A DNA stretch of 64,000 nucleotides from an uncultured Eubacteriales bacterium (GCA_900319345.1 ONNZ01000008.1:14057-78056), one strand, 5' to 3'; shown: positions 25,848-53,349, numbered from the stretch's first letter. The notes: a model not told the origin generated them from the sequence alone. Numbers and translations are program-made.

Positions 25848-27878
25848 TCATTCCTTATGAAAAACCAACGTCGCCTTGAACAGGTCTCCGTCCACGGTGA
25901 GCTCCAGGGCGCCGTGGTTCAGCTCCGTGAGGCTTTTGGCGATGGACAGGCCCAGGCCGCTGCCTTCGGTGTTCCGGGAGGCGTCACCCCGGACGAAGCG
26001 CTCCATGAGCTCCTCGGCGGAGATGTTGAGGGGCTCCCGGCTCACGTTCCGAAAGGCGATCTTCACTTCCCCGTCCTTCGCCTCCGTGGTGAGGTACACC
26101 CGGGTGCCGGCCAGGGCATACTTGCAGGCGTTGCTGAGGAGGTTGTCGAACACCCGCCACAGCAGCCGTCCGTCGGCCCGGATATGGGGCTCGCCGGGGT
26201 CCAGGGTGGTCACGGGGGTCAGCCCCGCCGCGGCCAGCCGCTCTGCGTACTCCCCCGCTGCCTGGGAAAGGAGCAGGTTCACGTCCACGTCCTCCGGGTG
26301 GGTCTGGATGTTCCCCGTGGACGCCTTGCTGGCCTCCACCAGGTCCTCCGTCAGCTTCTTTAGCCGCTGGCTCTGCCGATCCAGCACGTCCACATACTCC
26401 GGCGCGTGCTCGGAAGCAAGTCCCTCCTTCTTCAGCAGGTCCACGTAGGAGATGATGGACGTGAGGGGCGTCTTCAAATCGTGGCTCACGTTGGTGATCA
26501 GCTCCGTCTTCAGCCGCTCGCTCTTGAGCTGCTTCTCCACCGCCAGCCGGGCCCCCTGGCCGATGCTGTTCAGGCTCTGGGCGTGCTTCCTCTCGTCCGG
26601 GAACAGGAACTTCTCCGGCACCGGGGCCATGTCCCCGGCGGCCATGCGCCGGGCCCCGTCCTGAAGCTTCTTTAACCCGATGGCGAACATCAGGATCACC
26701 GGCGTTAGCACCAGCTTCTCAATGAACCACACCACCAGGCTGGCCTCCGCCCGTTCCGAGAGGCAGGCCACCAGCTCCACGAAACTGATGCCGCCCCAGA
26801 CCAGGGCCGTTTTCCAGACCAGGGGCAGGTTTTTGACCATGTACCACAGCCCCTTCGCCCCGGCCCAGGCCCCGCGGCAGACCCAGTAGAGCAGCGTCCC
26901 CTTCACCAGAGTTTTCGTCTTGCAGCGGACGGCGAAGGTCATACAGAACAGCAGTCCCAGGGCAAGGAGCATGGGCAGGAACAGGCCCAGGACCGTCAAA
27001 GTCCGGTCGGTGAGCGCCCTGCCCCCGAAGCCCACCAAAAGGGCCATGCCCAGCAGCACCAGCTCCAAGGGTATCCTGTCGAACCAGTTCCGGCTCACCT
27101 CCGCCGTCCCCGTCCGATGGCCCGCGGAGACCAAAAGGAAGATGAAAGCCGCGATGGTCAGCGCCAGGCACGCCGCCGTCACGGGGATAACCCAGTTGCG
27201 GCAGACGATGAAGGTGTTTACGAGAGGCAGGAGGATGGAGTACCGGTCCACCACAGGGAAGCTGCCGTCGATGCCGTAGCGGGCGGTGACGGTAAGCTTC
27301 GCTCTGGGCTGATAGCGGGCCTCCAGCATCCAGCCGTTGTCGGTTTCGGTGATGGAGGAGGTGAGGAGCCAGCTCCCCTGTTCGTGGATCCGATCCAACG
27401 CCTGGTATGCTTCCTCCTCCGTGGGATACACCTCTGCAATATGCCGATCGTCCTCTCGGCTAAGATACAATGTCCAGGGCTCCTCCCGATAGGCAAGGCA
27501 GCCCGTGGGGTCCCCGTTGGTAATGAACACATCTTTGTTGCCCGCATCGAAGCGGAAGTTGGTGCGGTCGCTCTGCAGGTGAATGGGCACCGCCAGTTCC
27601 CAGGGCCCATTTGGAAGGGGGTCGATACTGTCGGTCCCCTTATTCATGTTCCATCTCAGCGCTTCGCTGCCCTCCAGCTGTTGCTGCACGGTGGTGATAT
27701 CCCGGCTCATGAGATACCAGCAGGCGTCGTCAAACAGTTCTTTGCCGCCGTCGTTGAAGGCGTTGGTTTGAAACAGGGCCACGACGCCGCCGACGCCCAG
27801 AATGGTCCCCATGGCAAAGATCATAAGCAGCACGCCGGCCACGATCCGGGCGGCCAGGGTAAGATTCCACTTTCTCAT
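25848..27878 (-). CDS. multi-TM sensor histidine kinase
   Basis: H-box SHDLKTPLTSIISY; N and G boxes (NLLSNACKY, GSGLGLSI). TM1 is followed by an extracytoplasmic domain of roughly 180 aa and about 5 more TM helices. Confidence 0.9.
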   Translation of the reverse strand: MRKWNLTLAARIVAGVLLMIFAMGTILGVGGVVALFQTNAFNDGGKELFDDACWYLMSRDITTVQQQLEGSEALRWNMNKGTDSIDPLPNGPWELAVPIHLQSDRTNFRFDAGNKDVFITNGDPTGCLAYREEPWTLYLSREDDRHIAEVYPTEEEAYQALDRIHEQGSWLLTSSITETDNGWMLEARYQPRAKLTVTARYGIDGSFPVVDRYSILLPLVNTFIVCRNWVIPVTAACLALTIAAFIFLLVSAGHRTGTAEVSRNWFDRIPLELVLLGMALLVGFGGRALTDRTLTVLGLFLPMLLALGLLFCMTFAVRCKTKTLVKGTLLYWVCRGAWAGAKGLWYMVKNLPLVWKTALVWGGISFVELVACLSERAEASLVVWFIEKLVLTPVILMFAIGLKKLQDGARRMAAGDMAPVPEKFLFPDERKHAQSLNSIGQGARLAVEKQLKSERLKTELITNVSHDLKTPLTSIISYVDLLKKEGLASEHAPEYVDVLDRQSQRLKKLTEDLVEASKASTGNIQTHPEDVDVNLLLSQAAGEYAERLAAAGLTPVTTLDPGEPHIRADGRLLWRVFDNLLSNACKYALAGTRVYLTTEAKDGEVKIAFRNVSREPLNISAEELMERFVRGDASRNTEGSGLGLSIAKSLTELNHGALELTVDGDLFKATLVFHKE

Positions 27879-28585
27879 TTCGTTTTCCCTCCCATATTCA
27901 GGTTCTCAAAACGGTATCCCTTGCCCCAGATGACTTTGATGTACCGAGGCTCGGAGGGGTCGTATTCCAGCTTCTCCCTGAGATGCCGGATGTGGACCGC
28001 CACCGCGTTTTCCGCCCCGTAGGGGGATTCGCCCCAGACCTGCCGATAGATGTCCTTGGGGGAGAAGACCTGGCCCGGGTGGCTCATGAGGAGCTTCAGG
28101 ATGTCATACTCCCTTGGGGTCAGGCTGACGCCCTCCCCGTCCAGGGTGACGGTCTTGGCGGTATCGTCCAGGGACACGCCGCCGATGGTGATGGAAGAGG
28201 GCCGCTGCTCGCCCCCGCCCAGCTGCATGTACCGCCGAAGCTGGGAACGGACCCGGGCCAGCAGCTCCACAGGATTGAAGGGCTTGGTCACGTAATCGTC
28301 CGCGCCCAGGTTCAGGCCCAGGACCTTGTCCGTGTCCTCGGACTTGGCCGTCAAGAGGATCACGGGCACGTTGCTCTTTTCCCGGATACGGGTCATGGCG
28401 GTGATGCCGTCCATCTCCGGCATCATGATGTCCAGGAGGACGAGATGGACCTCCTCCCGTTCCAAAGCCGCCAAGGCCTCCGCCCCCGTATGGGCAGTGA
28501 CCACCTGGTGCCCCTCCGCCTCCAGATAGATCTTCAGGGCGTTCACGATGTCCCGTTCGTCGTCACAGACCAGGATGCGATACAT
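27875..28585 (-). CDS. OmpR-family response regulator
   Basis: Receiver domain (LVCDDE...LLDIMMPEMDG...KS) plus a winged-helix output domain (LTPREYDILKLL...IKVIWGKGYRF). ATGA overlap with the kinase gene. Confidence 0.93.
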   Translation of the reverse strand: MYRILVCDDERDIVNALKIYLEAEGHQVVTAHTGAEALAALEREEVHLVLLDIMMPEMDGITAMTRIREKSNVPVILLTAKSEDTDKVLGLNLGADDYVTKPFNPVELLARVRSQLRRYMQLGGGEQRPSSITIGGVSLDDTAKTVTLDGEGVSLTPREYDILKLLMSHPGQVFSPKDIYRQVWGESPYGAENAVAVHIRHLREKLEYDPSEPRYIKVIWGKGYRFENLNMGGKTK

Positions 28586-28615
28586 AGCTGTTTCTCCTTC
28601 CCTCTTTCCACGGCC

Positions 28616-28644
28616 ATCATACCGGAATTGAGATTAAGAAACAA
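28616..28644 (-). promoter_or_regulatory. candidate promoter of the two-component operon
   Basis: Minus strand reads TTGTTT, 17-nt spacer, TATGAT. It is flanked by two CTTAATCTC direct repeats (plus-strand gagattaag at 28630-28638 and 28663-28671). Confidence 0.35.
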
Positions 28645-28675
28645 TGGGGGAAAGTTTAAGAAGAGATTAAGATGG

Positions 28676-28840
28676 TTTTTCTTTTACACCTTTTCTCTTT
28701 CTACAAAGAGAAAAGGTGCCCAAAAGAGAAACTTAAAAAGAAAAAAGGCTATGCACGATGACATAGCCTTCTTCTTGAGTTTCTCTTTTTCCGCCGCTTT
28801 TTCTCCTTTGTATAAAGAGAAAAAGCGGCAAGAAAGAAAG
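28676..28840. repeat. AG/CT-rich nested-hairpin repeat family, full copy C (best preserved)
   Basis: Hairpins at 28687-28718 (caccttttctcttt-ctac-aaagagaaaaggtg), 28746-28769 (aggctatg-cacgatga-catagcct) and 28793-28829 (gccgctttttctcctttg-t-ataaagagaaaaagcggc). The right end ...agaaagaaagtTTA abuts the stop codon at 28842. Confidence 0.85.
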
Positions 28841-28841
28841 T

Positions 28842-30128
28842 TTATTCGTCTATCAGCTCGTCCTCGGGTTCGTCCTCGTCCACCCAGGCGGGGTCTTGCT
28901 CGACGAGGAGCCGGAGGACCCGCAGGTTGTTCCGCTTGAGGATGGTGACGGTCAGATCCTCGAAGGTGAAGCTTTCCCTAAGCTTCGGGTACCCCCCCAG
29001 CATCTCCACGGCCCAGCCGCCCACGGTGGCGTTGTCGTCGTCGATCTCCTCCTCGTCCTTGTCGAACTCGGCGAAGAAGTCGTCCAGGCGCATATCCCCG
29101 TCCACCTCGTAGACGTGGGGTTTGATCTCCACGAACTCCTCCTCAATCTCGTCGGACTCGTCCCAGATGTCCCCCACCAGCTGCTCCAGCACGTCCTCCA
29201 TGGTGAGGATGCCCATGGTGCCGCCGTACTCGTCGGTGACCACCGCCATATGCCCCTTCTTCCGGCGCATGGTGTTGAACACATCGTCAAGGGGCATGGT
29301 CTTGTGCACGAAGATGGGCGGCAGGAGGAGCTTTTCGATATCCGCGTCCGGGTCCTTTACCAGGGCCTTGTAGAGGTGGTTGAGGTGGAGGATGCCCACG
29401 ATGTTGTCCAACGTCTCCTGGTACACGGGGATGCGGGTATAGGGGGACGCGAAGGCCACCTTCAGCATCTCCTCCCGGGAGTCGTCGAGGTCGATGGCCA
29501 CCAGGTCCACCCGAGGCGTGATGATCTCGTAGGCCAGCACGTCCCCGAAATCAAGGGCCGATTGCAGCAGGTCCGCCGTGTCCTCGTCCACCACGCCCTC
29601 GTCCTCCACGGTCTCGATGATGGTTTCGAGGTCGTCCTCCGTGACCGCCGGGCCGGAATCCTGCCCCTGCTCCCAGAGCCGGGAGATGAAGTGCAGGAAC
29701 TTCTGGAGGGCCCAGGTCAAGGGCCAGGTGAGCCCCATCCACAGCCGCATGGGCACCGCGGCAATGGCGCTGAACCGCTCGGGCTGGGCGCTGGCGATGA
29801 TCTTCGGGGAGATCTCGCCGAAGGTGATGATGAGCACGGTCATGATGGCGGTGGCCACCCAGGCACCCTTCTCGCCCATGAGCCCCACGGCGATGACCGT
29901 GGCCAGGGACGAGGCGCCGATGTTCACCAGGTTGTTCCCCACCAGGATGGAGATGAGCGCCTTCTCGAACCGCTTCTTTACCCTGAGGGCCAGGGGGTAG
30001 GCCCCGCCCTTGGTCTCGGCGGCGTGTTCGAGCCGCATCTCCTGGGCCGCGGAATAGGCGATCTCGGAGCCGGAAAAGAAGGCGGACAGGACGATGCAGA
30101 CCAGGATCAGCAGCAGGTTCACGATCAT
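28842..30128 (-). CDS. CNNM/HlyC-CorC family transporter (DUF21 + CBS pair + CorC_HlyC)
   Basis: DUF21 TM region (FFSGSEIAY...GEISPK), a CBS pair and a C-terminal CorC_HlyC domain (VDGDMRLDDF...). Confidence 0.88.
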   Translation of the reverse strand: MIVNLLLILVCIVLSAFFSGSEIAYSAAQEMRLEHAAETKGGAYPLALRVKKRFEKALISILVGNNLVNIGASSLATVIAVGLMGEKGAWVATAIMTVLIITFGEISPKIIASAQPERFSAIAAVPMRLWMGLTWPLTWALQKFLHFISRLWEQGQDSGPAVTEDDLETIIETVEDEGVVDEDTADLLQSALDFGDVLAYEIITPRVDLVAIDLDDSREEMLKVAFASPYTRIPVYQETLDNIVGILHLNHLYKALVKDPDADIEKLLLPPIFVHKTMPLDDVFNTMRRKKGHMAVVTDEYGGTMGILTMEDVLEQLVGDIWDESDEIEEEFVEIKPHVYEVDGDMRLDDFFAEFDKDEEEIDDDNATVGGWAVEMLGGYPKLRESFTFEDLTVTILKRNNLRVLRLLVEQDPAWVDEDEPEDELIDE

Positions 30129-31213
30129 AGCTCGTCACCTCCCGCCGGGGCTTTGTCGTCCTCGTCGTAGATCTCGCCCACCAGCTCCTCCAGGATGTCC
30201 TCCACGGTGACGATGCCCAGGGGCTTCCCGTCCGCGTCCCGGACGATGGCGGCGTGGACCCGCTGGCTACTGAGGGTATCCAGCAGCTCGTCGATGGGTA
30301 TGCCGACGGTGACGAAGGTGGGTTTGTCCATGACCCGGCTCAGGGACACGTGGCCCTGGCGCTGGATGTAGGACTTCAGGTATTTTCGGATCTGGAGCAT
30401 GCCCACCACGTTCCCGTCCCGGTCCACCACGGGCAGCCGGGAATGGGGGCTCATCTCGATGAGCCCCACGATGGTCTTGGGCGACATGTCGCTGCGAAGG
30501 ATCGTCACCTGGTCCCAGGGGGTGAACACGTCCCGGACCGGGGTCTCGGTGAACTCCAGGGCGCTCTGGACCAGCTCCGCCGTGTCCTCGTCCACGCCGT
30601 TCTCCTCGTCGGGGATGATGGAGTCGATGATGTCGTGGAGCTCGTCCTCAGTGACGGTGGGGTCCTCCTCCTCGGGCACCCGGGCCACCTTCTTGAGATA
30701 GCGGCTCAGGCCCGTGAACAGGTGGATGAAGGGCTTCAACACCCGCATCAGGAGCAGCAGCGGCGTGGCGCAGAACAGGGCGAACCTCTCCGAGCAGGCC
30801 TTGGCGAAGGACTTGGGGATCATCTCCGCCGCCAGGAACACCAAAAGGGCCGTCACCACCGTGGTGGCCGCCACCGCCCCCTCGCCCCACAGGCGGGTGG
30901 CGGTCAGGGTCGCCAAAGCGGCGCTGCCGATGTGCATGATGTTGTTGCCGATCAATATGGCCGACAGGGCTTCCTCGAAGTGGTCCAGGATATAGAGCAC
31001 CCGCCGGGCCCGCCGATCCCCGTCGTCCGCATAGCTCATCATGCGGATCCGGTTCACGGTGGACAGGGCCGTCTCGCTGCCGGCAAAGAAGGCGCTGCAA
31101 ACCAGCAGCACCAGGAAGAACAGAACAAGGCCCGCAGGACTGCGCCCCGCGGCCTGGGAAACGGACTCGTTCAGCAGCATACGTATGGGAATGCTACTGG
31201 GATCTGCGTCCAC
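30125..31213 (-). CDS. CNNM family transporter paralog (DUF21 + CBS pair, no CorC_HlyC domain)
   Basis: FFAGSETAL...AEMIPK DUF21 region plus a CBS pair. GTG 31213 lies 8 nt after GAGGTGG. ATGA overlap with the downstream paralog. Confidence 0.85.
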   Translation of the reverse strand: MDADPSSIPIRMLLNESVSQAAGRSPAGLVLFFLVLLVCSAFFAGSETALSTVNRIRMMSYADDGDRRARRVLYILDHFEEALSAILIGNNIMHIGSAALATLTATRLWGEGAVAATTVVTALLVFLAAEMIPKSFAKACSERFALFCATPLLLLMRVLKPFIHLFTGLSRYLKKVARVPEEEDPTVTEDELHDIIDSIIPDEENGVDEDTAELVQSALEFTETPVRDVFTPWDQVTILRSDMSPKTIVGLIEMSPHSRLPVVDRDGNVVGMLQIRKYLKSYIQRQGHVSLSRVMDKPTFVTVGIPIDELLDTLSSQRVHAAIVRDADGKPLGIVTVEDILEELVGEIYDEDDKAPAGGDEL

Positions 31214-33926: not shown

Positions 33927-33978
33927 ATGGACCTCGATGTTTTGATTCCCTGGATTTTTTCCAAAAATAGCATAACAA

Positions 33979-34003
33979 CCGCGCTCCTGTCAAGGGAGCG
34001 CGG
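33979..34003 (-). terminator. hairpin terminator after the DUF4956 gene
   Basis: Minus strand reads CCGCGCTCC-cttgaca-GGAGCGCGG followed by a T-rich tract (ttgttatgctattttt). Confidence 0.5.
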
Positions 34004-34038
34004 CTGACTTAGGCGCAAATGAACGGTTATGCTCCCCC

Positions 34039-34695
34039 TCAGGAGATCATATCCCCCTGATGGGCGATGAGGGTGGCGTCGTAGACGCCCTCCACCCGCA
34101 TGAACTTATCCACGAAGCCGGTCTCGCTCTGACGGACCCGCAGCTCCACGGTCATCTCGATGCCCTCCCGCTGGACGGTCTTGGACTTGATCCGGCCCTG
34201 GGGGAGCTGGGCCACCATCTGCTTGATCTGCTTGCTGGCGCTCTCGTCGTAGTGGAGGATCAGCAGGTAGGGCATGGTGGAACGGCCCTTGATGACGGAG
34301 ATGAGGATCATGCACAGGCCGATGAACACCGCCGCGATGACGCCGGCGATGAAGTACCCCGCGCCCAGCGCGATGCCCTCGGCGATGGCCCAGAACATGA
34401 ACACCGTGTCGATGGGGTCCTTGATGGCGGTGCGGAAACGGACGATGGACAGAGCGCCCACCATGCCCAGGGACAGCTTCACGTTGTTGGCCATGAACAT
34501 GATGACCGTGGCGGTGACCATGCAGAGCATCACCAAACTCAGGTTGAAGGTCCTGGAGTAGATGACCCCGGCGAAGGTGATCCGGTAGATGAAGAACACG
34601 TAGAGCCCCACCAGGAAGGCTGCCAGCACCGTGAGGATGGTGAGCATGGGCTGATAGTTCTGCAGCTGCAAGATGTACTGAAATACGTTGTCCAT
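34039..34695 (-). CDS. DUF4956 domain membrane protein
   Basis: 4-5 TM helices with the SIVRFRTAIKDPIDTVFMFWAIAEGIALGAG signature, plus a soluble C-terminal domain of roughly 75 aa. Confidence 0.8.
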   Translation of the reverse strand: MDNVFQYILQLQNYQPMLTILTVLAAFLVGLYVFFIYRITFAGVIYSRTFNLSLVMLCMVTATVIMFMANNVKLSLGMVGALSIVRFRTAIKDPIDTVFMFWAIAEGIALGAGYFIAGVIAAVFIGLCMILISVIKGRSTMPYLLILHYDESASKQIKQMVAQLPQGRIKSKTVQREGIEMTVELRVRQSETGFVDKFMRVEGVYDATLIAHQGDMIS

Positions 34696-34720
34696 TGTTT
34701 TCTCCTTTTCCTGCGAATGA

Positions 34721-35407
34721 TTAAAAGTCGAACTGGCGGCAGTAGAGATATTTGCTGGCCGCCGTGTGGGAAGCTGCGTTCACCTGGAGGAGGGAGCGCA
34801 CGTAGCTGGGCAGGTACTTGTTGAACTTGACCTCCAGGATACATGCGTTCGGAAACTCCGTGGCTGGGAAGGTGGGCGTGTGGGGATCGAACAGGTCCGT
34901 GCACCGAAGCCCCGTGCGGATATTGCGGTCGATGGTCACCCGCACGTCCTCCAGGGGGAAGACGAAGGGCTCCCGATCGTAGTCCACCAGCACCTTGGGC
35001 CGCCAGCCCTCGGTCCGAAGGGCCGCGTAGAGCTCGGCGGCGAAATCCTCCTGCCGATGGAGGAGGAAGCCGTATTCCCCCGCCAGGATGGCGTCGCACT
35101 GCTGCCGGGTGATGAGCAGACTCTTCTTGCCGATGAACTGGCCGTTCTTATGCTTGCGCTCGAACTTGATGACCTTGTCGGACATGTCGTAGATACGGAT
35201 GCGGTACTTGTCCCGAAACTCCACGCCGTCGGTCTTCTCCCCCACCGCCTTCTCGAAGGGCGTGTCGAAGTAGAGGCTGCGGATGAAGTAGGTGCCGCCG
35301 TTCTTCACCGCGTGAGGGTCCTGGGACAGGGTGAGCCGAAGCCGGGTGGCCAGAAACTCCGCCTCCCCCAGGCTGATCAGATATTTTATCTCATGCCTGT
35401 ATTCCAT
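34721..35407 (-). CDS. VTC-domain (Vtc4-like polyphosphate polymerase / triphosphate-tunnel) protein
   Basis: MEYRHEIKYLI (tunnel N-terminal strand signature), FIRSLYFDTP, RIRIY, KFERKHK and ILEVKF. These are the alternating basic/acidic beta-strands typical of the VTC/CYTH fold. Confidence 0.8.
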   Translation of the reverse strand: MEYRHEIKYLISLGEAEFLATRLRLTLSQDPHAVKNGGTYFIRSLYFDTPFEKAVGEKTDGVEFRDKYRIRIYDMSDKVIKFERKHKNGQFIGKKSLLITRQQCDAILAGEYGFLLHRQEDFAAELYAALRTEGWRPKVLVDYDREPFVFPLEDVRVTIDRNIRTGLRCTDLFDPHTPTFPATEFPNACILEVKFNKYLPSYVRSLLQVNAASHTAASKYLYCRQFDF

Positions 35408-35413
35408 GGTCCC

Positions 35414-38400
35414 TCACTCCGTTCGACCGAAGATCTCCATCATCTTCTGGTCCGTCAGGTTATAGTTGGTGTTCTTCTTGATGTAGTTCTTCAGGTACTT
35501 GAAGTAGTACTCCTGATAGTGGTTGGCGTAGCCCTTCACGTTGTTCAGGTGGGCCTTCCAGTTCTTCACCGTCAGGCTCCAGCGGGGGAAGTCCCACTCG
35601 ATCTCCGAGGCGATGTTGCTGGAGAGGGCGTCCACCTTGGCCACGATCTTCTCCGGTGAGTATACCTCATTGACCATCTTGGCGCAATACTTCAGGAAGA
35701 TTTCCACAAAGTCGTTGTTTTTCAGCAAGGACCGCGCCAGGACCGTGGAAAAGCCCTTGCCCGCCCCGTGACCGTCGGGATGGAAATACTTCGTGAAGAA
35801 GTCCCGCCGATAGCCGTTAGTATAGGCTTCCTCCTTTTCGTCGTTCCGGGCCATGGCGTCGTCGAAGTCGTAGAGGATCCAGCGCCACTTGCCGTCCTTC
35901 TCGCTGGAGCGCCACCACTTGATGTTGCCGGAGTCGTTGTTGCCGGTGACGATCTCCACGGCGCAGTACATGGCGAAGTTCTCCACGTCGATCTGGGAGC
36001 AGACGTATTCGTAGTCCCCGTAGTTGCTGAGGTCGCAGTTCTTGCTCTTGCAGAAGTCGATCAGGGCCTGATAGTCCTTCACGCAATCGGGATCACCGGC
36101 GGCGTAGACGCCGTTCCACTTCATGACGTCGATGCTGTCCTTGTTGGTGATGGAGTAGTGCTGGGCGATGAAGGACCGGCTGATCTTCTCCCGGAGGTTG
36201 TAGACCCCCCAGTACTGGCCGTTCAGGTACAGGGCCGTCTGCACGTAGGCCTGGACGGCGGTGTCCAGCCCCGCGTCCTCGATGAGGCCCGTCATCATGA
36301 TGTCCCGCAGCTTGGTGGCCACGGCGTCCTTGGCGGAGCACCGAAGCACCAGGGATTCATAGCTCGTAAAGGGCCGGTTGGAGAAGAAGGGGTAGTCCAG
36401 GGTGGAGCCGCCGTAGCCCTTGCGGGCGATGAGGGCTAAGTTCCGCTGCTTCTGGTACCGGGAGAAGGCCCCGAAGATGCGGATCATCAGATCCGACTCG
36501 AAGATGACCTCTTTGCCGCCGGCGCTGGTATAGGTCCAGTGCGCGGGGCGCTCCCATTCCCGGCCTCGCTGGTTGTAGTTGGCGCCCAGCTTCCTATCGT
36601 TGGAGGGGGTGGTCCACTCCGTGGCCGCGGTCTTGCCCTGATAGTGGCTGCCCACCACATAGATGCCGTAATCCACGTTAAAGAGGTTGTCCGGGTCGGT
36701 GACCAGGAAGCACACGGGGAGCGTGGAATCGTGGGCGTCGGTGGTCTGGGTATCCCCCACGATGATATAGGTGTTGGAGACCACCGGGCTCTTATAGAGG
36801 GTCCCGTTCTCGCTGAAGGCCCGGGCCCGCAGCACCGCATTTTGGCTGAAGGTCAGCTGCTCCCCCGCCCGATAGCGGGTGGAGCTCTCCGTGGGGGTGG
36901 TGCAGTCCAGGGTATAGGTCACATAGGTCCCGGCCGGGATCTCCATGCTGACGACCTGGGTGCCGTGATAGACGCCGCTGGGCACGGAGACCACGGGCGC
37001 CTCGCAGTAGGCGCTGCCCATAAGAGGCGCGGTGTTGGCCGCCCCCTGGGTGGGCGTGTCGCAAAGGCCCCAGCTGTCCCCCACCTTGGCGTAGGACACG
37101 CAGGCCACGGACAGGGGCACCGTCACCCGATCGATGAGGGTGCCTGCGTTGTTATAGAGATAGAGTGTCTCCCCCAGACCGGATACGGCGAAATTCAGCG
37201 TCCGCGCCTTCATCTCGGCGGTGACGCTCTTCTCGTCCTTGCCTTCCAGCGGAAGGCTGCCGCTCATGTAGAGGATGAGATATCCTTTCCCGGCGATACT
37301 CGTTCCCTCAGGAAAAACCCATTTCGTGGGCTTTTTCTCGTTGTCTGACAGGGAGTAGCCCGTCAGGGAAACGGTTTGGTCGGAGCGGTTATAGAGCTCC
37401 ACCCACTTGCCCTGATCGTCGTCGTCCGGGGTGTTCTTCGCATCCAGCTTGTAGCGATAGCCGTCGGAAAGGATCTCGGAGAAGGTGATGTCGTGGACGC
37501 CCACGTCCGGGTTCCGCTGCTTGTCGAAGGCGGTGTAGCCCGCGACGGTGTTGGGGTAGCCGGGGGTGGGCTTGTCGGAGGATACGAAGCCGGACTGGGT
37601 GTCGAGATCGCCGCTGCCGGTGTAGCCCCGGATCATGCTGCAGTCCTTGGTCTGGACGCCGAACTCGCACATATCGAGGATGCCGCCGTTCTTATCCACC
37701 AGGATCACGGCGTCCCCCTTGCTGCCGGACAGGTTGAAGGGCAGGGAGATATAGCCCTCCATCTCCTCGGGCATGCACCAAAGGAGCAGGTACTGGCCCG
37801 GGTCGATGGAAGATCCCTGGGGGAAGGTGAACTTATAGGGCTTGCGGATATCGTCGCTGATGCCGCAGCCGGAAAGATCCACGGGAGCGTTGGTGGTGTT
37901 GTGAAGCTCGATCCAGTCGGGATACTGGCCGTTGGGGCCCGCGGTGGTGGTGCCGTTGCGGGCCATGAGCTCGGAGATATAGACCCCGTTGTGCTGGGCG
38001 GTGGCACCTACGCTGAGGGGCGCGTCGTTCTCCCCCAGCTTCCGGCTCTCCTCATAGGCCGCCACGCCGGCGGGGGTGTTGGGATAGAGGGGCGAGGGCA
38101 GCATGTCCTCATACTGCCGGGTCTCCTCATTCCAGCACAGGGCATAGCCCGTATAGACGGAGGGCAGCTCCATGGTGAACAGAGGCTCGCCCGCCGCGTT
38201 GGTGAGCCGGATCACGTCCCCGACGCCCAGCTTGAAGTCGGCGATGAGGGCGTTTTCCACCTTCTCGCCGGTGCACCAGACCAGGATGTACCCGTCGGGG
38301 GGCAGCACGGTCTTGTCGGGAAAGACCCACAGCCGATCCTCCCGGTCAGAGAGGCCCCAGCCGGAGATGTCCTGCGCCTCGCTGGATGTGTTGTGCAGCT

Positions 38401-38620
38401 CCACATAGTCCGGATGGTTGCCTGCCCCATCGGAGACGATGCCCGTGTTGTTGGTCATGATCTCGCTGATGATCACGTCCGTGGTCAGCTGGACCGCGGG
38501 CGCTTCCGCCGCCTTCTTTTTGCGGCAGGAGGCCCAGCTCACGCCGATGATGAGCAGCAGCACCAGCACCACGGCAACGGCGGGTTTGACCATCGCTTGT
38601 TGTGCGCGCCTACGCTTCAT
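35414..38620 (-). CDS. N-terminally anchored CotH kinase family protein with three lamin-tail domains
   Basis: TM helix at aa 12-30. LTD-like repeats near aa 48-160, 212-330 and 378-515 (ISEIMTNN...DYVELHN...ISGWGLSD and paralogous segments). Chitobiase-C-like segment at aa 540-620. CotH region from about aa 635 (LNGQYWGVYNLREK...). Confidence 0.85.
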   Translation of the reverse strand: MKRRRAQQAMVKPAVAVVLVLLLIIGVSWASCRKKKAAEAPAVQLTTDVIISEIMTNNTGIVSDGAGNHPDYVELHNTSSEAQDISGWGLSDREDRLWVFPDKTVLPPDGYILVWCTGEKVENALIADFKLGVGDVIRLTNAAGEPLFTMELPSVYTGYALCWNEETRQYEDMLPSPLYPNTPAGVAAYEESRKLGENDAPLSVGATAQHNGVYISELMARNGTTTAGPNGQYPDWIELHNTTNAPVDLSGCGISDDIRKPYKFTFPQGSSIDPGQYLLLWCMPEEMEGYISLPFNLSGSKGDAVILVDKNGGILDMCEFGVQTKDCSMIRGYTGSGDLDTQSGFVSSDKPTPGYPNTVAGYTAFDKQRNPDVGVHDITFSEILSDGYRYKLDAKNTPDDDDQGKWVELYNRSDQTVSLTGYSLSDNEKKPTKWVFPEGTSIAGKGYLILYMSGSLPLEGKDEKSVTAEMKARTLNFAVSGLGETLYLYNNAGTLIDRVTVPLSVACVSYAKVGDSWGLCDTPTQGAANTAPLMGSAYCEAPVVSVPSGVYHGTQVVSMEIPAGTYVTYTLDCTTPTESSTRYRAGEQLTFSQNAVLRARAFSENGTLYKSPVVSNTYIIVGDTQTTDAHDSTLPVCFLVTDPDNLFNVDYGIYVVGSHYQGKTAATEWTTPSNDRKLGANYNQRGREWERPAHWTYTSAGGKEVIFESDLMIRIFGAFSRYQKQRNLALIARKGYGGSTLDYPFFSNRPFTSYESLVLRCSAKDAVATKLRDIMMTGLIEDAGLDTAVQAYVQTALYLNGQYWGVYNLREKISRSFIAQHYSITNKDSIDVMKWNGVYAAGDPDCVKDYQALIDFCKSKNCDLSNYGDYEYVCSQIDVENFAMYCAVEIVTGNNDSGNIKWWRSSEKDGKWRWILYDFDDAMARNDEKEEAYTNGYRRDFFTKYFHPDGHGAGKGFSTVLARSLLKNNDFVEIFLKYCAKMVNEVYSPEKIVAKVDALSSNIASEIEWDFPRWSLTVKNWKAHLNNVKGYANHYQEYYFKYLKNYIKKNTNYNLTDQKMMEIFGRTE

Positions 38621-38663
38621 TCCCTTTCCTCGTTTCCTGAATAATCGTTCTGTGTATCATACC

Positions 38664-38731
38664 ATAGGGAGGGACAGAGTTTCCATGGCCCGGAGCCACT
38701 TTTAACACTCTGTATACAATCCCTCCCCTAT
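38664..38731. other. long imperfect hairpin between the gyrA stop and the CotH start
   Basis: atagggagggacagagt (38664-38680) pairs with actctg..tccctcccctat (38707-38731). Confidence 0.5.
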
Positions 38732-47075: not shown

Positions 47076-49430
47076 TTACCGCGCCAGGCGGCCGGCCACG
47101 TACTTCAATATGGCCTTGGCGTCCAGGCTGGTGACCTGGCCGTCCCCGTCCATGTCCGCAGCTGCCAGCTTCGGATCGGACAGGTCTATGAGCCCCGCGT
47201 CGTACCGCAGGACCAGGGCCGCGTCGGCGGCGGAGACCAGCCCGTCCCCGTTCACGTCCCCCTGGCTCAGGCGCACGGCCGGCTCCTCGGTGGGCTTCTT
47301 GGTGGGGGTGGCGTCAGGCTCGTCGTCCTCCAACGCCACGTAATCCTTGTGGATGTACCCGTACTTGCCGGACCGGTTCACCTTCAGGAAGTACCAGTTC
47401 CCGTCCCGCAGGTACACGGTCAGCTCCGTGCCGCTCTTGAGACCGCTGTCCACCAGATCGTAATCGGTGCTGGGCCCCTTGCGCATGTTCACGCCGCTCT
47501 TGACCAGGGTGCCGATGACCGCCTTGCGGATCATCTCCTCCGTAGGCTCCGTGTAGGGCCCCTTGGGGGTGGGCGCCGGGGTAGGCGTGGGCGTGGGCGT
47601 AGGCGCGGGGGTGTCCGTGGGCGCAGGGGTGTCCGTGGGCGCAGGGGTGTCCGTGGGCTCCGGCGTATCCGTGGGCTCCGGCGTATCCGTGGGCGCAGGG
47701 GTGTCCGTAGGCTCAGGGGTATCCGTGGGCTCCGGCGTATCCGTAGGCTCAGGGGTATCCGTGGGCTCCGGCGCGTCCGTAGGCTCCGGGGCGTCCGTGG
47801 GCTCCGGCGCGTCCGTAGGCTCCGGCGCGTCCGTGGGCTCCGGCGCATCCGTAGGTTCCGGGGCGTCCGTAGGCTCCGGCGTGTCCGTAGGCGCAGGCTC
47901 CGGCGTATCCGTGGGCGCGGGCGTGTCCGTGGGCGCGGGCGTGGGCGTGGGTTCCTCTTCGGGCTCCTTCTCAGACAGATTCTTCTTGGCGACGAAGCCC
48001 TGGACCCCGGTAACAAGATCGATCCCGTAGTACCAGTCGCCGCTGGCCTTATACACGCCGAACCGGCCCTTGAAGGGCAGGCGGGCGCAGACGTCCCCGT
48101 TGGAGGAGGCCTTGCTCATGACCTCGGCGCCGCTGACCGCGACCCAAAGGGTCTTGGTGATGCTGTGGTTATGGGACCCGGTCATGGCCGCCACGATCCC
48201 GGCGGTGGACAGGTCCGCCTGGGAGGAGATCGTGGTGCCGTCGCTCCTGGTCAGCTCCGCGCCGGGGTAATAAAACTTCAGGATGTCCACATAGCTGTAG
48301 CCCAGATCCGCCATGCGGGCCGCACCTTTCTGGGACATGCCCTTCCGGTGGCCCTTGCTCTGGCCCCAACACAGGAGCCACTGACCCCCCTTCACCCGGG
48401 TGGCGAAGCGGATGCTGTTGTCGGACAGGATCACGTTCTTCTTAGCAAGCTCGTCGAAGGTCACGTCCAGGGTCTTGGTGCTCTCGCTCCCCCCCTGCGT
48501 CACCTTCATGGTGATCTTGAAGCCGCTTTGGGGCGTGGTGTCCTGGGGGTACCCCTCCACGTCCTTGATCTCGACGATGGCGTCCGCCCCCGCCTTGGAG
48601 AGCAGGTAATCGTACAGCTTCTGGGGCAGGGTCTCGGGGGCGTTCCCCGTCACGGCGACCATCAGGTTCGTGGCGTCGGAGCGGGTGATGTCGAAGGGGT
48701 CGAACTTGTTGGCGTAAGCGGCGTCGTATTTGCCGCCCGGCTTGATCATGGCGCCGCCGTTGCTGGAGCTGTACACGGTCTTGACCGGCTTGCCGTCCAG
48801 CATCAGCGTCTCGTCCGCTACCTCCGCGGCGCAGGCGATGGCCTTGCTCGCCGAAGCATTGTAGCCGTGGTAGACCTGATCCTTGCTGGTGTCCTCCACG
48901 TCGTAGGCCTTGTCGCCGCTGACGCTCATCTCCGCCAGAGCGTAGCCCTTGGCCGCCAGCAGAGCGGCCTTGAGCAGATCCTCGTGGGAGTCCTTGTCCA
49001 CTTCGCAGATGGCCACGCCCAGCATGTAGTCCTCCATGCCCACGGAGTTCACTGCCCGGACGGCGCCGTTGGACACACTGAAGGTGACGCTGCCCCGATA
49101 GGTGCGCTCCTTCTCACCGGCGGTGGCCAGGGTGAAGAGGTTGGTCCGATCCTGGGCGGTCAGGGTGACCTTCTCGCCGGTGAACAGCTGGCCCAGCTCG
49201 CTGTGGGTCACCACCACCTCCGTGCCGGACACGGCCACGGTCAGGGTGCCGCCGGAGATCTCGGTGCCTTCGAGGGTGTAGGTCCCCGACAGGGTCAGGG
49301 TCAGAGTATCCCGGCCCTCCGTGGAGAGAAGCACCCGCACGGGGCTTTCCTCCGCCTGGGAGGGCGGTGGGAACGACAGGAGCCCCGCCAGCATGACCAG
49401 GGCGATGAAGATGCACAGTTTCTTTTTCAT
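47076..49430 (-). CDS. secreted SpoIID/LytB-domain protein with SH3-like modules, a hexapeptide-repeat linker and a C-terminal dockerin-like domain
   Basis: Signal peptide MKKKLCIFIALVMLAGLL. SpoIID-like core (DQVYHGYN...VYSSSNGGA). About 24 xPTDxP repeats. C-terminal GDVNGDGLVSAADAALVLRY...DMDGDGQVTSLDAKAILKY. Confidence 0.8.
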   Translation of the reverse strand: MKKKLCIFIALVMLAGLLSFPPPSQAEESPVRVLLSTEGRDTLTLTLSGTYTLEGTEISGGTLTVAVSGTEVVVTHSELGQLFTGEKVTLTAQDRTNLFTLATAGEKERTYRGSVTFSVSNGAVRAVNSVGMEDYMLGVAICEVDKDSHEDLLKAALLAAKGYALAEMSVSGDKAYDVEDTSKDQVYHGYNASASKAIACAAEVADETLMLDGKPVKTVYSSSNGGAMIKPGGKYDAAYANKFDPFDITRSDATNLMVAVTGNAPETLPQKLYDYLLSKAGADAIVEIKDVEGYPQDTTPQSGFKITMKVTQGGSESTKTLDVTFDELAKKNVILSDNSIRFATRVKGGQWLLCWGQSKGHRKGMSQKGAARMADLGYSYVDILKFYYPGAELTRSDGTTISSQADLSTAGIVAAMTGSHNHSITKTLWVAVSGAEVMSKASSNGDVCARLPFKGRFGVYKASGDWYYGIDLVTGVQGFVAKKNLSEKEPEEEPTPTPAPTDTPAPTDTPEPAPTDTPEPTDAPEPTDAPEPTDAPEPTDAPEPTDAPEPTDAPEPTDTPEPTDTPEPTDTPEPTDTPAPTDTPEPTDTPEPTDTPAPTDTPAPTDTPAPTPTPTPTPAPTPKGPYTEPTEEMIRKAVIGTLVKSGVNMRKGPSTDYDLVDSGLKSGTELTVYLRDGNWYFLKVNRSGKYGYIHKDYVALEDDEPDATPTKKPTEEPAVRLSQGDVNGDGLVSAADAALVLRYDAGLIDLSDPKLAAADMDGDGQVTSLDAKAILKYVAGRLAR
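47563..47965. repeat. 18-nt-period tandem repeat array (encodes EPTDAP/EPTDTP/APTDTP hexapeptides)
   Basis: Units such as ggctccggcgcgtccgta / ggctccggcgtatccgtg are repeated about 20 times; several adjacent units are identical. Confidence 0.9.
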
Positions 49431-51184: not shown

Positions 51185-52489
51185 TTACGGATTCTCTTCC
51201 GTTTGCGGCGTGGTCTCCGCCGTGACGGTGGACGCCAGCGACACCTGGACGCGCTGGTTCTGCAGGGCGACGATCACGTCGGGGAACCGATTCTGGTCCA
51301 GGCCCTGGACCACGGGGATCAGTTCCCAGTCCCCCGGGCCGTAGCCCGCCAGGTCCACCTTGACGGCGAGGCTCTCCGGCGTCACCTGCTCCACCTGCTT
51401 GAGGGGACCGCTGACCACCACGGTGGCTATGGTGGGCGCGCCGTCGACGATGGCAAGATCGCTTCCGACCCCCGTATAGGTCAACGGCACCTCCAGTTCG
51501 GTCTCCCCCGTCTTCTCCGTCACCACGGCGTTGAGGGTCACGGAGCTGCTCTGGCCCCGCTTCAGGGACACGCCCTCCGGCAGCACCAGCGTCAGATCCC
51601 GGGTGACCACGCCTCGCTCCGCCGGCAGCACCAGGGCCTGGGTGGAGACGGTGTCGATGGCCGCCAACGCCTCGCTGGTCCCGTAGAGGACCACGGAGGC
51701 AGGCGAAACCTGGTTGATGGATTCGTAGTAGACGTCGTCCTCCAGGGTGACCTCCGGACGGATGTTGACCAGCTTGTAGGCGGAAATGGTCGCCCGGACG
51801 GTCACGTTGGGGTTGTTCTGGCTGCGGGTGACCACGGTGACCTCGTTGTCGTTCTTGTCGTAGAAGACTACGTTGACGCTCTCCTCCACGTTTTCGGTCC
51901 GCCCCGTCAGATCCACGGTGGCCACGGCCCGCACCGTAGGCTCGATGTATCGGGCGGCGCCCTCCACGGTGATGGTGCTGACCATGCTTTCGGCCACCAC
52001 CTCATATCCCTCGGGCAGCGTCCCCGTCAGCTCCAGCTTCACGGGCACGGTCTTGACGATCAGGTTGTCCACCTCCACGGTGACGGTCCTGGGGTCCACG
52101 CTGGCCACGGTGCCCAGATTGGACTGGACCGTGACGCTGAGCGGCAGCCGATAGGTGCCCGCGGCGGAGATGGTGCCCAGGGAGGCCCGGCAGGTGATGC
52201 GGCTGGCGTCCAGGTCCGAATGGTTGGTGATGGTGGCGTTCACCTCCACGTCGGCCATGCCTAAGTCGGAGTTCACCAGGATCAGGTTTCGGCTCAGCAG
52301 GTCCGTATAGCCCTCCAGGGTGATGGGCACGTCGTCGATGGACTTGGAGCGGACCGGGTTCAGGGCCACCAGCACGTAGGCCCACAGCAGGATGGCGAAG
52401 ACCAGGGCCACGATCTTCAAGCCCAGGTTCCGGGTGAAAACGTCCTTGAGCCGATTGAGCAGGGCGGTGGTGAATAACTTGCGCTTCAT
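51185..52489 (-). CDS. cdaR: YbbR-domain protein (CdaR, regulator of diadenylate cyclase)
   Basis: N-terminal TM helix plus four YbbR-like repeats. Overlaps the cdaA stop (ATGA). Confidence 0.85.
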   Translation of the reverse strand: MKRKLFTTALLNRLKDVFTRNLGLKIVALVFAILLWAYVLVALNPVRSKSIDDVPITLEGYTDLLSRNLILVNSDLGMADVEVNATITNHSDLDASRITCRASLGTISAAGTYRLPLSVTVQSNLGTVASVDPRTVTVEVDNLIVKTVPVKLELTGTLPEGYEVVAESMVSTITVEGAARYIEPTVRAVATVDLTGRTENVEESVNVVFYDKNDNEVTVVTRSQNNPNVTVRATISAYKLVNIRPEVTLEDDVYYESINQVSPASVVLYGTSEALAAIDTVSTQALVLPAERGVVTRDLTLVLPEGVSLKRGQSSSVTLNAVVTEKTGETELEVPLTYTGVGSDLAIVDGAPTIATVVVSGPLKQVEQVTPESLAVKVDLAGYGPGDWELIPVVQGLDQNRFPDVIVALQNQRVQVSLASTVTAETTPQTEENP

Positions 52490-53349
52490 CGCTTGCTCTC
52501 CTCCTTTCGGCGGGACTGGTTCTTGCCGAAGGTCAGCCCGCTGATGTTCTTCTTCAGGAAGATGCTTTCCAGCAGGTTCCTGAGGGCCAGGCTGTCCAGG
52601 TACCGGATGAGCTTCCCGTCGTGAGCTAGGGAGATGGCGCCGGTCTCCTCGGAGACCACCAGCACCAGGCAGTCGGACACGGTGGACACGCCCAGGGCCG
52701 CCCTATGCCGAGTGCCCAGCTCCCGGGAGATGCCCGTCTCCTCGGAGAGGGGCAGGAAGCAGGCCGCCGCCACCAGGGTGGAGCCGCGGCAGATCACCGC
52801 TCCGTCGTGGAGGGGGGTGTTGGGTTCGAAGATGTTTTCGATCAGCGCGCCGGAGACCCGGCCCTCGATGGCCGTGCCGGTGCTGATGATGTCCCCCAGG
52901 CCCGTCTTCTGCTCGAAGACGATGAGGGCGCCCACCCGCCGCCGGCTCAGGCGCAGGATGGTCTTGTGCAGATCCTCGATCAGATCCTCCACGCCCATGT
53001 TCCCCGCCTCGCTGATGAGCTTGCCGATGGCCTTGCCGCTGCGGCCCAGCCGTTCCAGCACCCGGCGGATCTCCGGGGTGAAGAGGATGAAGATGACGAT
53101 GATGATGGTACCAGATTGGAGGATGGAGTCCAAAAGCCAGTTGAGGGTATACATGCTCAAGAGCTGGGTCGCCACGGAGGCGACGATCAACAGGCCCACG
53201 CCCTTGATGACCTCGTATGCCCGGGTATCCTTGGTCCAGACGATGAGCTTATAGAGCAGCACCGTCAGGATCGCTATGTCAAGAAGATCGTTCCAGCCGA
53301 ACTGGCCGAGACCGCTTCCCAGGGTTTTTAAGATCTCTTCAAAGCTCAA
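52486..53349 (-). CDS. cdaA: diadenylate cyclase CdaA
   Basis: Three N-terminal TM helices plus DAC-domain motifs (GALIVFE, HDGAVI, GTRHRAALG). TTG start at 53349 after AGGTGATGG. Confidence 0.92.
   Translation of the reverse strand: MSFEEILKTLGSGLGQFGWNDLLDIAILTVLLYKLIVWTKDTRAYEVIKGVGLLIVASVATQLLSMYTLNWLLDSILQSGTIIIVIFILFTPEIRRVLERLGRSGKAIGKLISEAGNMGVEDLIEDLHKTILRLSRRRVGALIVFEQKTGLGDIISTGTAIEGRVSGALIENIFEPNTPLHDGAVICRGSTLVAAACFLPLSEETGISRELGTRHRAALGVSTVSDCLVLVVSEETGAISLAHDGKLIRYLDSLALRNLLESIFLKKNISGLTFGKNQSRRKEESKR

Follow-up and report, generated by a model that had tools for sequence, protein, structure and literature searches.

A CotH–VTC–DUF4956 operon outside pel loci as a candidate system for polyphosphate synthesis at the bacterial membrane

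Genes for a CotH-family kinase, a putative polyphosphate (polyP) polymerase with a VTC domain, and a DUF4956 membrane protein have been reported as companions of the pel polysaccharide genes. Whitfield et al. (2020) reported that pelDEADAFG is adjoined by a conserved set of accessory genes, namely cotH, a "poly-phosphate polymerase" gene, DUF4956 and DUF4832 (bioRxiv 10.1101/768473 = PMC7112168). This accessory set occurs in streptococci and clostridia, and in bifidobacteria a diguanylate cyclase/phosphodiesterase (DGC/PDE) gene replaces DUF4832 (PMC7112168). Here we describe a set of the same three families at positions 34,039 to 38,620 of a 64,000-nucleotide stretch of DNA, called the window below, from an uncultured Eubacteriales bacterium (GCA_900319345.1 ONNZ01000008.1:14057-78056), a member of the Clostridia from gut or rumen. 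The gene set has already been described beside pel operons; the form shown here is pel-free, and its kinase is a transmembrane (TM)-anchored protein rich in lamin-tail domains (LTDs). A first-pass annotation of this DNA knew of no experimental characterization of the trio, a statement overtaken by the 2020 description as a pel accessory set and by deletions in Streptococcus intermedius in 2025.

In S. intermedius, SIR_1593 has been modeled as Vtc4-like with its catalytic residues present, SIR_1592 is described as combining an MgtC transmembrane domain with an ACT domain, and SIR_1594 as a secreted CotH protein with FN3 (PMC12345266). Deletion of SIR_1592 raised Pel and deletion of SIR_1594 lowered it, and both deletions cut aggregation in artificial sputum medium (PMC12345266). 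The same authors stated that the synteny of the trio is not found outside pel loci (PMC12345266). Related genes are also known from the NELoc-2 locus of Clostridium perfringens, which carries VTC-domain genes together with genes for a CotH kinase, a glycosyltransferase and a polysaccharide deacetylase (PMC11677781). At BT3498-BT3499 of Bacteroides thetaiotaomicron, a DUF4956 gene adjoins a DUF2490 gene; this pair appears in a table of an iron-dependent stimulon with a fold change of −7.6 and P 0.175 (PMC10434189), and it may represent a different partner set in diderms.

The three open reading frames (ORFs) in the window are co-oriented on the minus strand: cotH at 35414..38620 (1068 aa), the VTC gene at 34721..35407 (228 aa) and the DUF4956 gene at 34039..34695 (218 aa). 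Gaps of 6 nt (cotH-VTC) and 25 nt (VTC-DUF4956) separate them. All of their Pfam matches exceed the curated gathering thresholds, with three LTDs (2.8e-54), CHB_HEX_C_1 (3.5e-09) and CotH (5.1e-44) in the longest protein, VTC (1.1e-35) in the second and DUF4956 (1.5e-09) in the third. At the first junction, the cotH stop codon is followed by gggacc and then by the VTC ATG, and a GGAG ribosome-binding site (RBS) overlaps the 3' end of cotH. At the second junction, an AAGGAG RBS stands 7 nt ahead of the DUF4956 ATG. A terminator-like hairpin, recognized by sequence and RNA folding, lies ∼35 nt past the DUF4956 stop codon (33963..34006, minus strand) and has a 12-bp GC-rich stem and a loop of 7 nt, with a U-rich tract after it. 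The hairpin folds with a free energy of −34.7 kcal/mol (z = −3.5 versus dinucleotide shuffles), and it was not flagged by a simple terminator scan because its T run is interrupted.

The three genes form one operon-like unit. The first-pass annotation had reached this view from their shared orientation, the two short gaps and the 3' hairpin, all of which were found again here with exact coordinates and with an RBS at each junction. A sigma-70-like promoter candidate (TGGAAA, 18-nt spacer, TG-TATGAT; 38656..38685, minus strand), which is a consensus match only, sits within the 121-nt spacer between gyrA and cotH. Public assemblies contain an identical VTC protein in 58 indexed blocks, and in the three places listed among these blocks, independent gene calls give the same gene order and the same Pfam assignments. 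No NCBIfam model matches any of the three proteins, and PADLOC defense models likewise yield zero matches to them.

To place this locus among its relatives, a scan with one genome per species was made. It returned at least 595 VTC relatives, of which the best 80 loci were analyzed. Their VTC proteins share 43-94% identity with that of the window, and nearly all are named as Clostridia or Bacillota, with one labeled Alloprevotella. DUF4956 adjoins VTC in the same orientation in 76 of the 80 loci; in each of the other four, the contig runs out no more than 240 bp from the VTC gene. Most of the gaps between the two genes measure −4 to +70 nt. The two constitute an obligate genetic pair. CotH, in contrast, is present in 66 of the 80 loci and is therefore frequent yet dispensable, which identifies VTC plus DUF4956 as the core of the set. 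Thus, the co-occurrence of three families expected by the first-pass annotation holds for the pair, whereas CotH is not a constant member.

Several arrangements are found among the loci with CotH. In 42 loci an LTD-CotH gene is present without pel genes; VTC comes directly after CotH in 33 of these (two of which are cut before DUF4956), and the order is CotH-DUF4956-VTC in the remaining nine. A CotH protein of ∼600 aa is encoded downstream of pelA(deacetylase)-pelF-pelG in 15 loci, with DUF4832 following in 11. The order VTC-DUF4956-CotH is seen in five loci, and four more have a partial CotH at the end of a contig. The pel-free form is the majority in this sample (at least 42 of 80), which contradicts the published statement that the trio is not found outside pel loci.

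The window belongs to the pel-free form, since tblastn with PelF, PelG, PelA-deacetylase and DUF4832 from related loci found nothing in its 64 kb at E ≤ 1e-3. The likeness to the pel accessory cluster is nonetheless close: The same three families appear in the same order and orientation, with a kinase predicted to be extracytoplasmic, a VTC protein predicted to be cytoplasmic and a third, MgtC/ACT-type membrane protein. Besides the lack of pel genes and DUF4832 homologs, the two differ in the kinase, which in the window is ∼450 aa longer, carries a TM anchor rather than being a lipoprotein, and has three LTDs and CHB_HEX_C instead of FN3.

Where CotH is missing, other genes can stand beside the pair. 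In three loci (L027:6362-7438, L055:2767-4227 and L060:6522-7973), a protein with a TM anchor and LTDs but no kinase is encoded directly upstream of VTC-DUF4956. These LTD-only genes encode two or three LTDs (three in L055 and L060), and their products group with the LTD-CotH proteins in one BLAST cluster; their position next to the pair suggests that the LTD ectodomain is tied to VTC and DUF4956 independently of kinase activity. In a Desulfosporosinus metagenome-assembled genome (MAG), a 662-aa carbohydrate-binding (beta-helix) protein of the Cthe_2159 family follows the pair in place of CotH (L056:7470-9458). This locus is one of six complete loci that have the pair but no CotH or LTD gene (L051, L056, L061, L067, L068 and L078). 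Judged by its sequence features, the usual third partner is a variable protein of predicted extracytoplasmic location; a membrane- or lipid-anchored protein of this kind is encoded in ∼85% of the loci.

The 228-aa VTC protein is a stand-alone, Vtc4-like triphosphate-tunnel protein that is predicted to be cytoplasmic. Pfam assigns only the VTC domain across its 228 aa, and neither a TM segment nor an SPX domain is found. Its AlphaFold2 (AF2) model has a pLDDT of 85 and a pTM of 0.83. The top 12 Foldseek matches to this model are all Vtc4 or VTC-complex chains (best 3g3r, E 2.9e-13, TM 0.74); after Vtc4 comes Vtc2, and then YgiF, AtTTM3, ThTPase and CyaB-like cyclases (E 1e-08 to 1e-05). Searches with each of the three single proteins against PDB sequences by phmmer gave no useful match, and profiles were therefore needed. 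A profile of 37 VTC sequences matches Vtc4 in the PDB at 8.8e-10, with the alignment starting at strand 1. Because Saccharomyces cerevisiae Vtc4 was not among the protein-search returns, fungal exon fragments stood in for it in the profile comparison. These homologs, which make up five of alignment A4's six rows, match the Vtc4 query fragment with BLASTP identities of 54-76%, and hhalign gave 96% probability over 205 columns against them. The modeled fold is a triphosphate tunnel closest to Vtc4, in agreement with the first-pass annotation.

The residues that serve polyP synthesis in yeast provide a finer comparison. According to the cryo-EM study of the VTC complex, K200, R264, R266, K281, Y359, R361, E426, S457 and K458 of Vtc4 hold the triphosphate and Mn2+, and their mutation lowers yeast polyP (bioRxiv 10.1101/2023.01.27.525886). 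Within this set, K458 is the sole residue replaced in Vtc2 and Vtc3, and the central domain of Vtc3 is likely inactive (bioRxiv 10.1101/2023.01.27.525886). The equivalents in the window protein are K8 (K200), R69 (R264), R71 (R266), K85 (K281), Y143 (Y359), R145 (R361), E192 (E426), S218 (S457) and K219 (K458), the last two paired through an SK[YF] motif that stands at a matching distance from the ILEVK strand in bacterial VTC and in Vtc4. Eight of the nine are invariant in 81 sequences (the 80 species loci plus the window protein), and K8 is present in 80 of the 81. None of the tunnel residues is missing, and the protein thus carries the complete polyphosphate-polymerase active site of Vtc4.

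The first strand shows one likeness to Vtc4 and one difference. Bacterial VTC proteins have R-H-E-x-K where Vtc4 has R-Q-T-x-K. As in Vtc4, an Arg replaces the first Glu of the CYTH ExExK motif (R4, in 80 of 81, equivalent to R196), whereas E6 (80 of 81) stands where Vtc4 has T198. VTC relatives are numerous, with 7,325 representative clusters (50% identity) at E ≤ 1e-3 and 1,036 at ≤ 1e-30, and where a source gives a name to these proteins, it is "polyphosphate polymerase domain-containing protein." Two kinds of apparent fusion were set aside. Long VTC "fusions" of 360-620 aa (P0361-P0398) have an N-terminal extension without a Pfam domain and are likely over-extended ORF calls. A 354-aa VTC-DUF4956 "fusion" on a 2.2-kb contig (P0122) has only a partial VTC match and was treated as an assembly or calling artifact, because the 28-nt junction would have to be bridged by a frameshift for the fusion to be real.

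The constant partner, DUF4956, was modeled by AF2 with moderate confidence (pLDDT 65). The model has five helices (residues 16-136; 34288-34650, minus strand) followed by an ACT-like domain (residues 141-211; 34063-34275, minus strand) with a beta-alpha-beta-beta-alpha-beta order. By the positive-inside rule, the N terminus is probably outside, and the conserved loop and the C-terminal domain are probably cytoplasmic. The first-pass annotation had counted four to five TM helices plus a small soluble tail; the helices are borne out, but the tail is rather an ACT-like domain of ∼75 aa. Across 70 sequences, the positions with at least 95% conservation form the pattern S75-G-M-V-G-A-L-S-I-x-R86-x-R88-T-A-x-K92-x-P94-x-D96...F101-W102...G107, in which a glycine-rich helix leads into a basic loop (R86-x-R88-T-A-x-K92-x-P94-x-D96) predicted to lie at the inner face of the membrane.

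The relatives of DUF4956 point away from the eukaryotic complex. Apart from DUF4956 itself, Pfam gives only a sub-threshold MgtC match (E 0.47), and the 50 best Foldseek matches listed include only weak ACT/ferredoxin-like similarities, such as ACT, NikR and NapD-like folds. A 59-sequence DUF4956 profile aligns with Escherichia coli YhiD by hhalign at E 4.4e-05 (69% probability, 140 columns), whereas a shallow DUF4956 alignment was not significant (E 0.14). The alignment spans TM3-TM5 and the whole ACT-like domain, and the G-x-G...W..A.G...G.G core is aligned. Likewise, phmmer with YhiD matches four DUF4956 ORFs at 1.8e-06 to 1e-03. This remote match agrees with the description of SIR_1592 as MgtC plus ACT (PMC12345266). 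These comparisons point to DUF4956 being a remote MgtC/YhiD relative and not a Vtc1-type channel, and to a homology that stops short of family membership. Like MgtC, YhiD and SapB, DUF4956 has about five TM helices and a cytoplasmic ACT-like domain in its moderate-confidence model; unlike them, it scores under the cutoff of the Pfam MgtC model, possesses an invariant basic loop of its own (RFRTAxKDPxD) and always has VTC as its partner. The Vtc-like conduit proposed for it in the first-pass annotation finds no counterpart in similarity to Vtc1 or the VTC channel.

The 1068-aa CotH protein begins with a K/R-rich N terminus and a single hydrophobic helix (residues ∼13-31; 38528..38584, minus strand here and for the domains that follow) that together form a putative signal anchor. 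Three LTDs follow at residues 43-152 (38165..38494), 206-322 (37655..38005) and 375-502 (37115..37498), then a CHB_HEX_C_1/Fn3-associated beta-sandwich module at residues 547-607 (36800..36982), and finally the CotH atypical kinase domain at residues 713-1037 (35510..36484). An anchor of this pattern, without a conserved lipobox Cys, is common to ∼40 LTD-CotH orthologs, which bears out the ectodomain topology assigned by the first-pass annotation. These long proteins have an uncleaved-looking TM anchor, whereas most of the short CotH proteins encoded in pel-linked loci (such as L036:6174-7967, L043:6211-7989 and L045:6215-7981) have a lipobox Cys after the signal peptide. In both forms, a membrane tether is predicted to hold the kinase at the outer face, and the signal anchor and extracellular-type modules argue for a location at the cell surface.

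The kinase domain itself retains its catalytic aspartates. A profile of 24 CotH domains matches Bacillus cereus CotH in the PDB (5jd9) at 6.7e-31, and D896 and D918 of the window protein correspond to the catalytic D228 and D251 of Bacillus subtilis CotH. The D228Q and D251A forms of the B. subtilis protein are catalytically inactive (PMC7821199). Across 68 CotH domains, N894, D896 and D918 each reach a conservation of at least 90%, and the protein is assigned to the PF08757 family with its predicted catalytic aspartates in place. Although the kinase domain is homologous to that of Bacillus CotH (PDB 5JD9/5JDA), the window protein differs in being a membrane-anchored, multidomain ectoprotein encoded in an operon with VTC and DUF4956, with no cotG- or cotB-type substrates encoded nearby.

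One explanation that unites these features is that VTC and DUF4956 couple polyP synthesis to export for use at the cell surface. The VTC protein would dock on the cytoplasmic side of DUF4956, near the basic loop (R86, R88 and K92) and the ACT-like domain, and once docked would polymerize the gamma-phosphate of ATP into polyP. The pair would then bring the polymer to the membrane or move it across. At the outer surface, the tethered LTD-CotH protein would bind polyP or act alongside it to build or modify a cell-surface matrix; other genomes would have an LTD-only protein, a Cthe_2159 protein or a CotH lipoprotein in its place. Export is favored because the variable third gene always encodes an extracytoplasmic protein and because some of the loci are joined to genes of the Pel machinery. 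A polyanion partner would make sense for Pel, a cationic polysaccharide; the altered Pel and aggregation after deletion of the S. intermedius DUF4956 and CotH genes are also counted for export. We regard export-coupled synthesis as a serious possibility that is still somewhat short of probable. A fuller version, in which the pair is a polyP synthase-exporter that evolved independently of the eukaryotic channel and provides polyP outside monoderm cells, the LTDs bind polyP, and CotH uses polyP as a phosphoryl donor or scaffold on surface proteins or glycans, is unlikely to be correct in all its parts.

A synthase-plus-conduit arrangement is plausible, and VTC plus DUF4956 would then be a functional analog of the eukaryotic VTC synthase-translocase with a nonhomologous membrane part, rather than a member of that complex. 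The two systems share the Vtc4-type tunnel with all nine residues for polyP synthesis and a genetic tie to a polytopic membrane protein. In contrast to eukaryotic VTC, the window protein has neither an SPX domain nor a fused 3-TM VTC/DUF202-type domain, and its membrane partner is unrelated to Vtc1, being MgtC-like with an ACT domain. The enzyme is also smaller (228 aa, versus the 295-residue Vtc4 catalytic chain 3g3q) and has a Glu in place of T198. Lacking an SPX domain and a VTC-type TM channel, the trio fails as a member of the VTC complex.

Other explanations start from the same data. The VTC protein might be a PPK-independent polymerase whose polyP stays in the cytoplasm, with DUF4956 serving as its regulator or membrane anchor and using the ACT domain to sense a small ligand, comparable to the way in which protein contacts mediate the action of MgtC, and with CotH co-expressed for envelope or phosphate stress. 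The S. intermedius authors proposed polyP in the cytoplasm and a function in phosphate metabolism (PMC12345266). The relation of DUF4956 to MgtC and YhiD seen with hhalign and phmmer, its ACT-like domain, and the six complete loci that have the pair but no CotH or LTD gene are all consistent with this account. It leaves unexplained, however, why an anchored extracytoplasmic third gene is present in ∼85% of loci and why a soluble polymerase has a dedicated polytopic membrane partner in every genome, and we consider it possible but doubtful. That the VTC protein is instead a tunnel hydrolase or another triphosphate-tunnel metalloenzyme (TTM), such as a triphosphatase, an NTP or polyP hydrolase, or a cyclase, and controls a phosphate-containing signal together with DUF4956, seems improbable. 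Matches of the model to YgiF, TTM3, ThTPase and CyaB-like proteins (E 1e-08 to 1e-05) and the Glu at the ExExK position where Vtc4 has Thr would fit such an enzyme, but every Vtc4 and Vtc2 match outranks the hydrolases, the full triphosphate-binding set is invariant or nearly so, including the K458 equivalent, and the first Glu of ExExK is an Arg as in Vtc4 (R4 = R196).

A role in sporulation, in which CotH would, as in Bacillus, phosphorylate spore-coat or forespore-surface proteins with mother-cell ATP while VTC and DUF4956 supply phosphate reserves of the spore, is very unlikely. The family membership and intact catalytic residues of CotH, a host of the Clostridia lineage, and a SpoIID-domain gene in the window are compatible with it. 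It is difficult to reconcile with a signal anchor plus an ectodomain in which LTDs and carbohydrate modules take up 700 aa, compared with the 359-residue chain of B. cereus CotH (5jd9), or with a sole promoter candidate that is sigma-70-like. The same trio also occurs in non-sporulating streptococci (PMC12345266) and in bifidobacteria (PMC7112168). Finally, the neighborhood statistics effectively refute the idea that the three genes are functionally unrelated neighbors brought together by chance: VTC and DUF4956 are adjacent in 76 of 76 informative loci, CotH accompanies them in 66 of 80, and at least three gene orders and two genomic contexts are represented. The trio has moreover been reported independently in streptococci, clostridia and bifidobacteria (PMC7112168).

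Several observations weigh against export-coupled synthesis itself. With a pLDDT of 65, the DUF4956 model allows no pore to be claimed, and none of its 50 best Foldseek matches listed is to the VTC-complex chains 7ytj, 8i6v or 9umg. We know of no MgtC-family member that is a transporter, and for this reason the conduit role of DUF4956 is something that we infer. Salmonella MgtC acts through its targets ATP synthase and PhoR (PMC12345266). Deletion of the VTC gene SIR_1593 in S. intermedius, unlike deletion of its neighbors, caused no aggregation phenotype and had no reported effect (PMC12345266). Among the residues of the active site, the pairing of S218 and K219 with S457 and K458 lies just past the end of the hhalign alignment and is set by the SK[YF] motif only. 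The retained E6 is half of the ExExK hydrolase motif, such that the chemistry could differ from that of Vtc4; this Glu could provide a second metal site or support a different reaction. We found no paper with biochemical evidence for any bacterial VTC enzyme.

The surroundings of the operon are chromosomal in character. Upstream lie recF, gyrB and gyrA, an arrangement that may place the locus near the replication origin. Downstream are genes for a CDP-alcohol phosphatidyltransferase (the pssA of the first-pass annotation, for which Pfam assigns the family only), psd, a membrane metallophosphoesterase and two CNNM/CorC proteins, so that the placement between gyrA and lipid genes in a nonmobile context is upheld. 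This setting differs from that of NELoc-2, which likewise has VTC-domain and CotH genes but is a strain-variable, disease-linked locus present in 23 of the surveyed strains (PMC11677781), whereas the window locus sits in the recF-gyrB-gyrA block. The metallophosphoesterase gene lies just downstream of psd in the 25848-31213 region (minus strand), where an OmpR-type two-component pair (histidine kinase 25848-27878, response regulator 27875-28585) adjoins the tandem CNNM/CorC-type genes. Upstream of the gyr block, at 51185-53349 (minus strand), a gene with DAC and CdaA_N domains is followed by a YbbR-domain gene, and the two can be read as a cdaA-cdaR pair for cyclic di-AMP synthesis. In the 784-aa product of the gene at 47076-49430 (minus strand), a SpoIID domain is joined to a type I dockerin and a bacterial SH3 domain. 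SpoIID-like proteins do not usually bear a dockerin, and its presence here implies that the host has cellulosomes. Neither Rfam nor tRNA searches gave a match in the 64-kb window.

The established polyP synthases of bacteria are PPK1 and PPK2. A widespread Vtc4-type polymerase would constitute a third bacterial route to polyP, one that is genetically tied to the membrane and to surface proteins. The gene set is not newly discovered, but it is widespread and can readily be tested by simple biochemistry. Because the module is mostly independent of pel in Clostridia, the question is broader than biofilm polysaccharide. An answer would bear on how extracytoplasmic CotH kinases are supplied with a phosphate donor, since polyP in this role would solve the problem of ectokinase function where ATP is scarce. 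It would also bear on the polyanion partner of Pel in the biofilms of Gram-positive bacteria and on the role of MgtC-like proteins.

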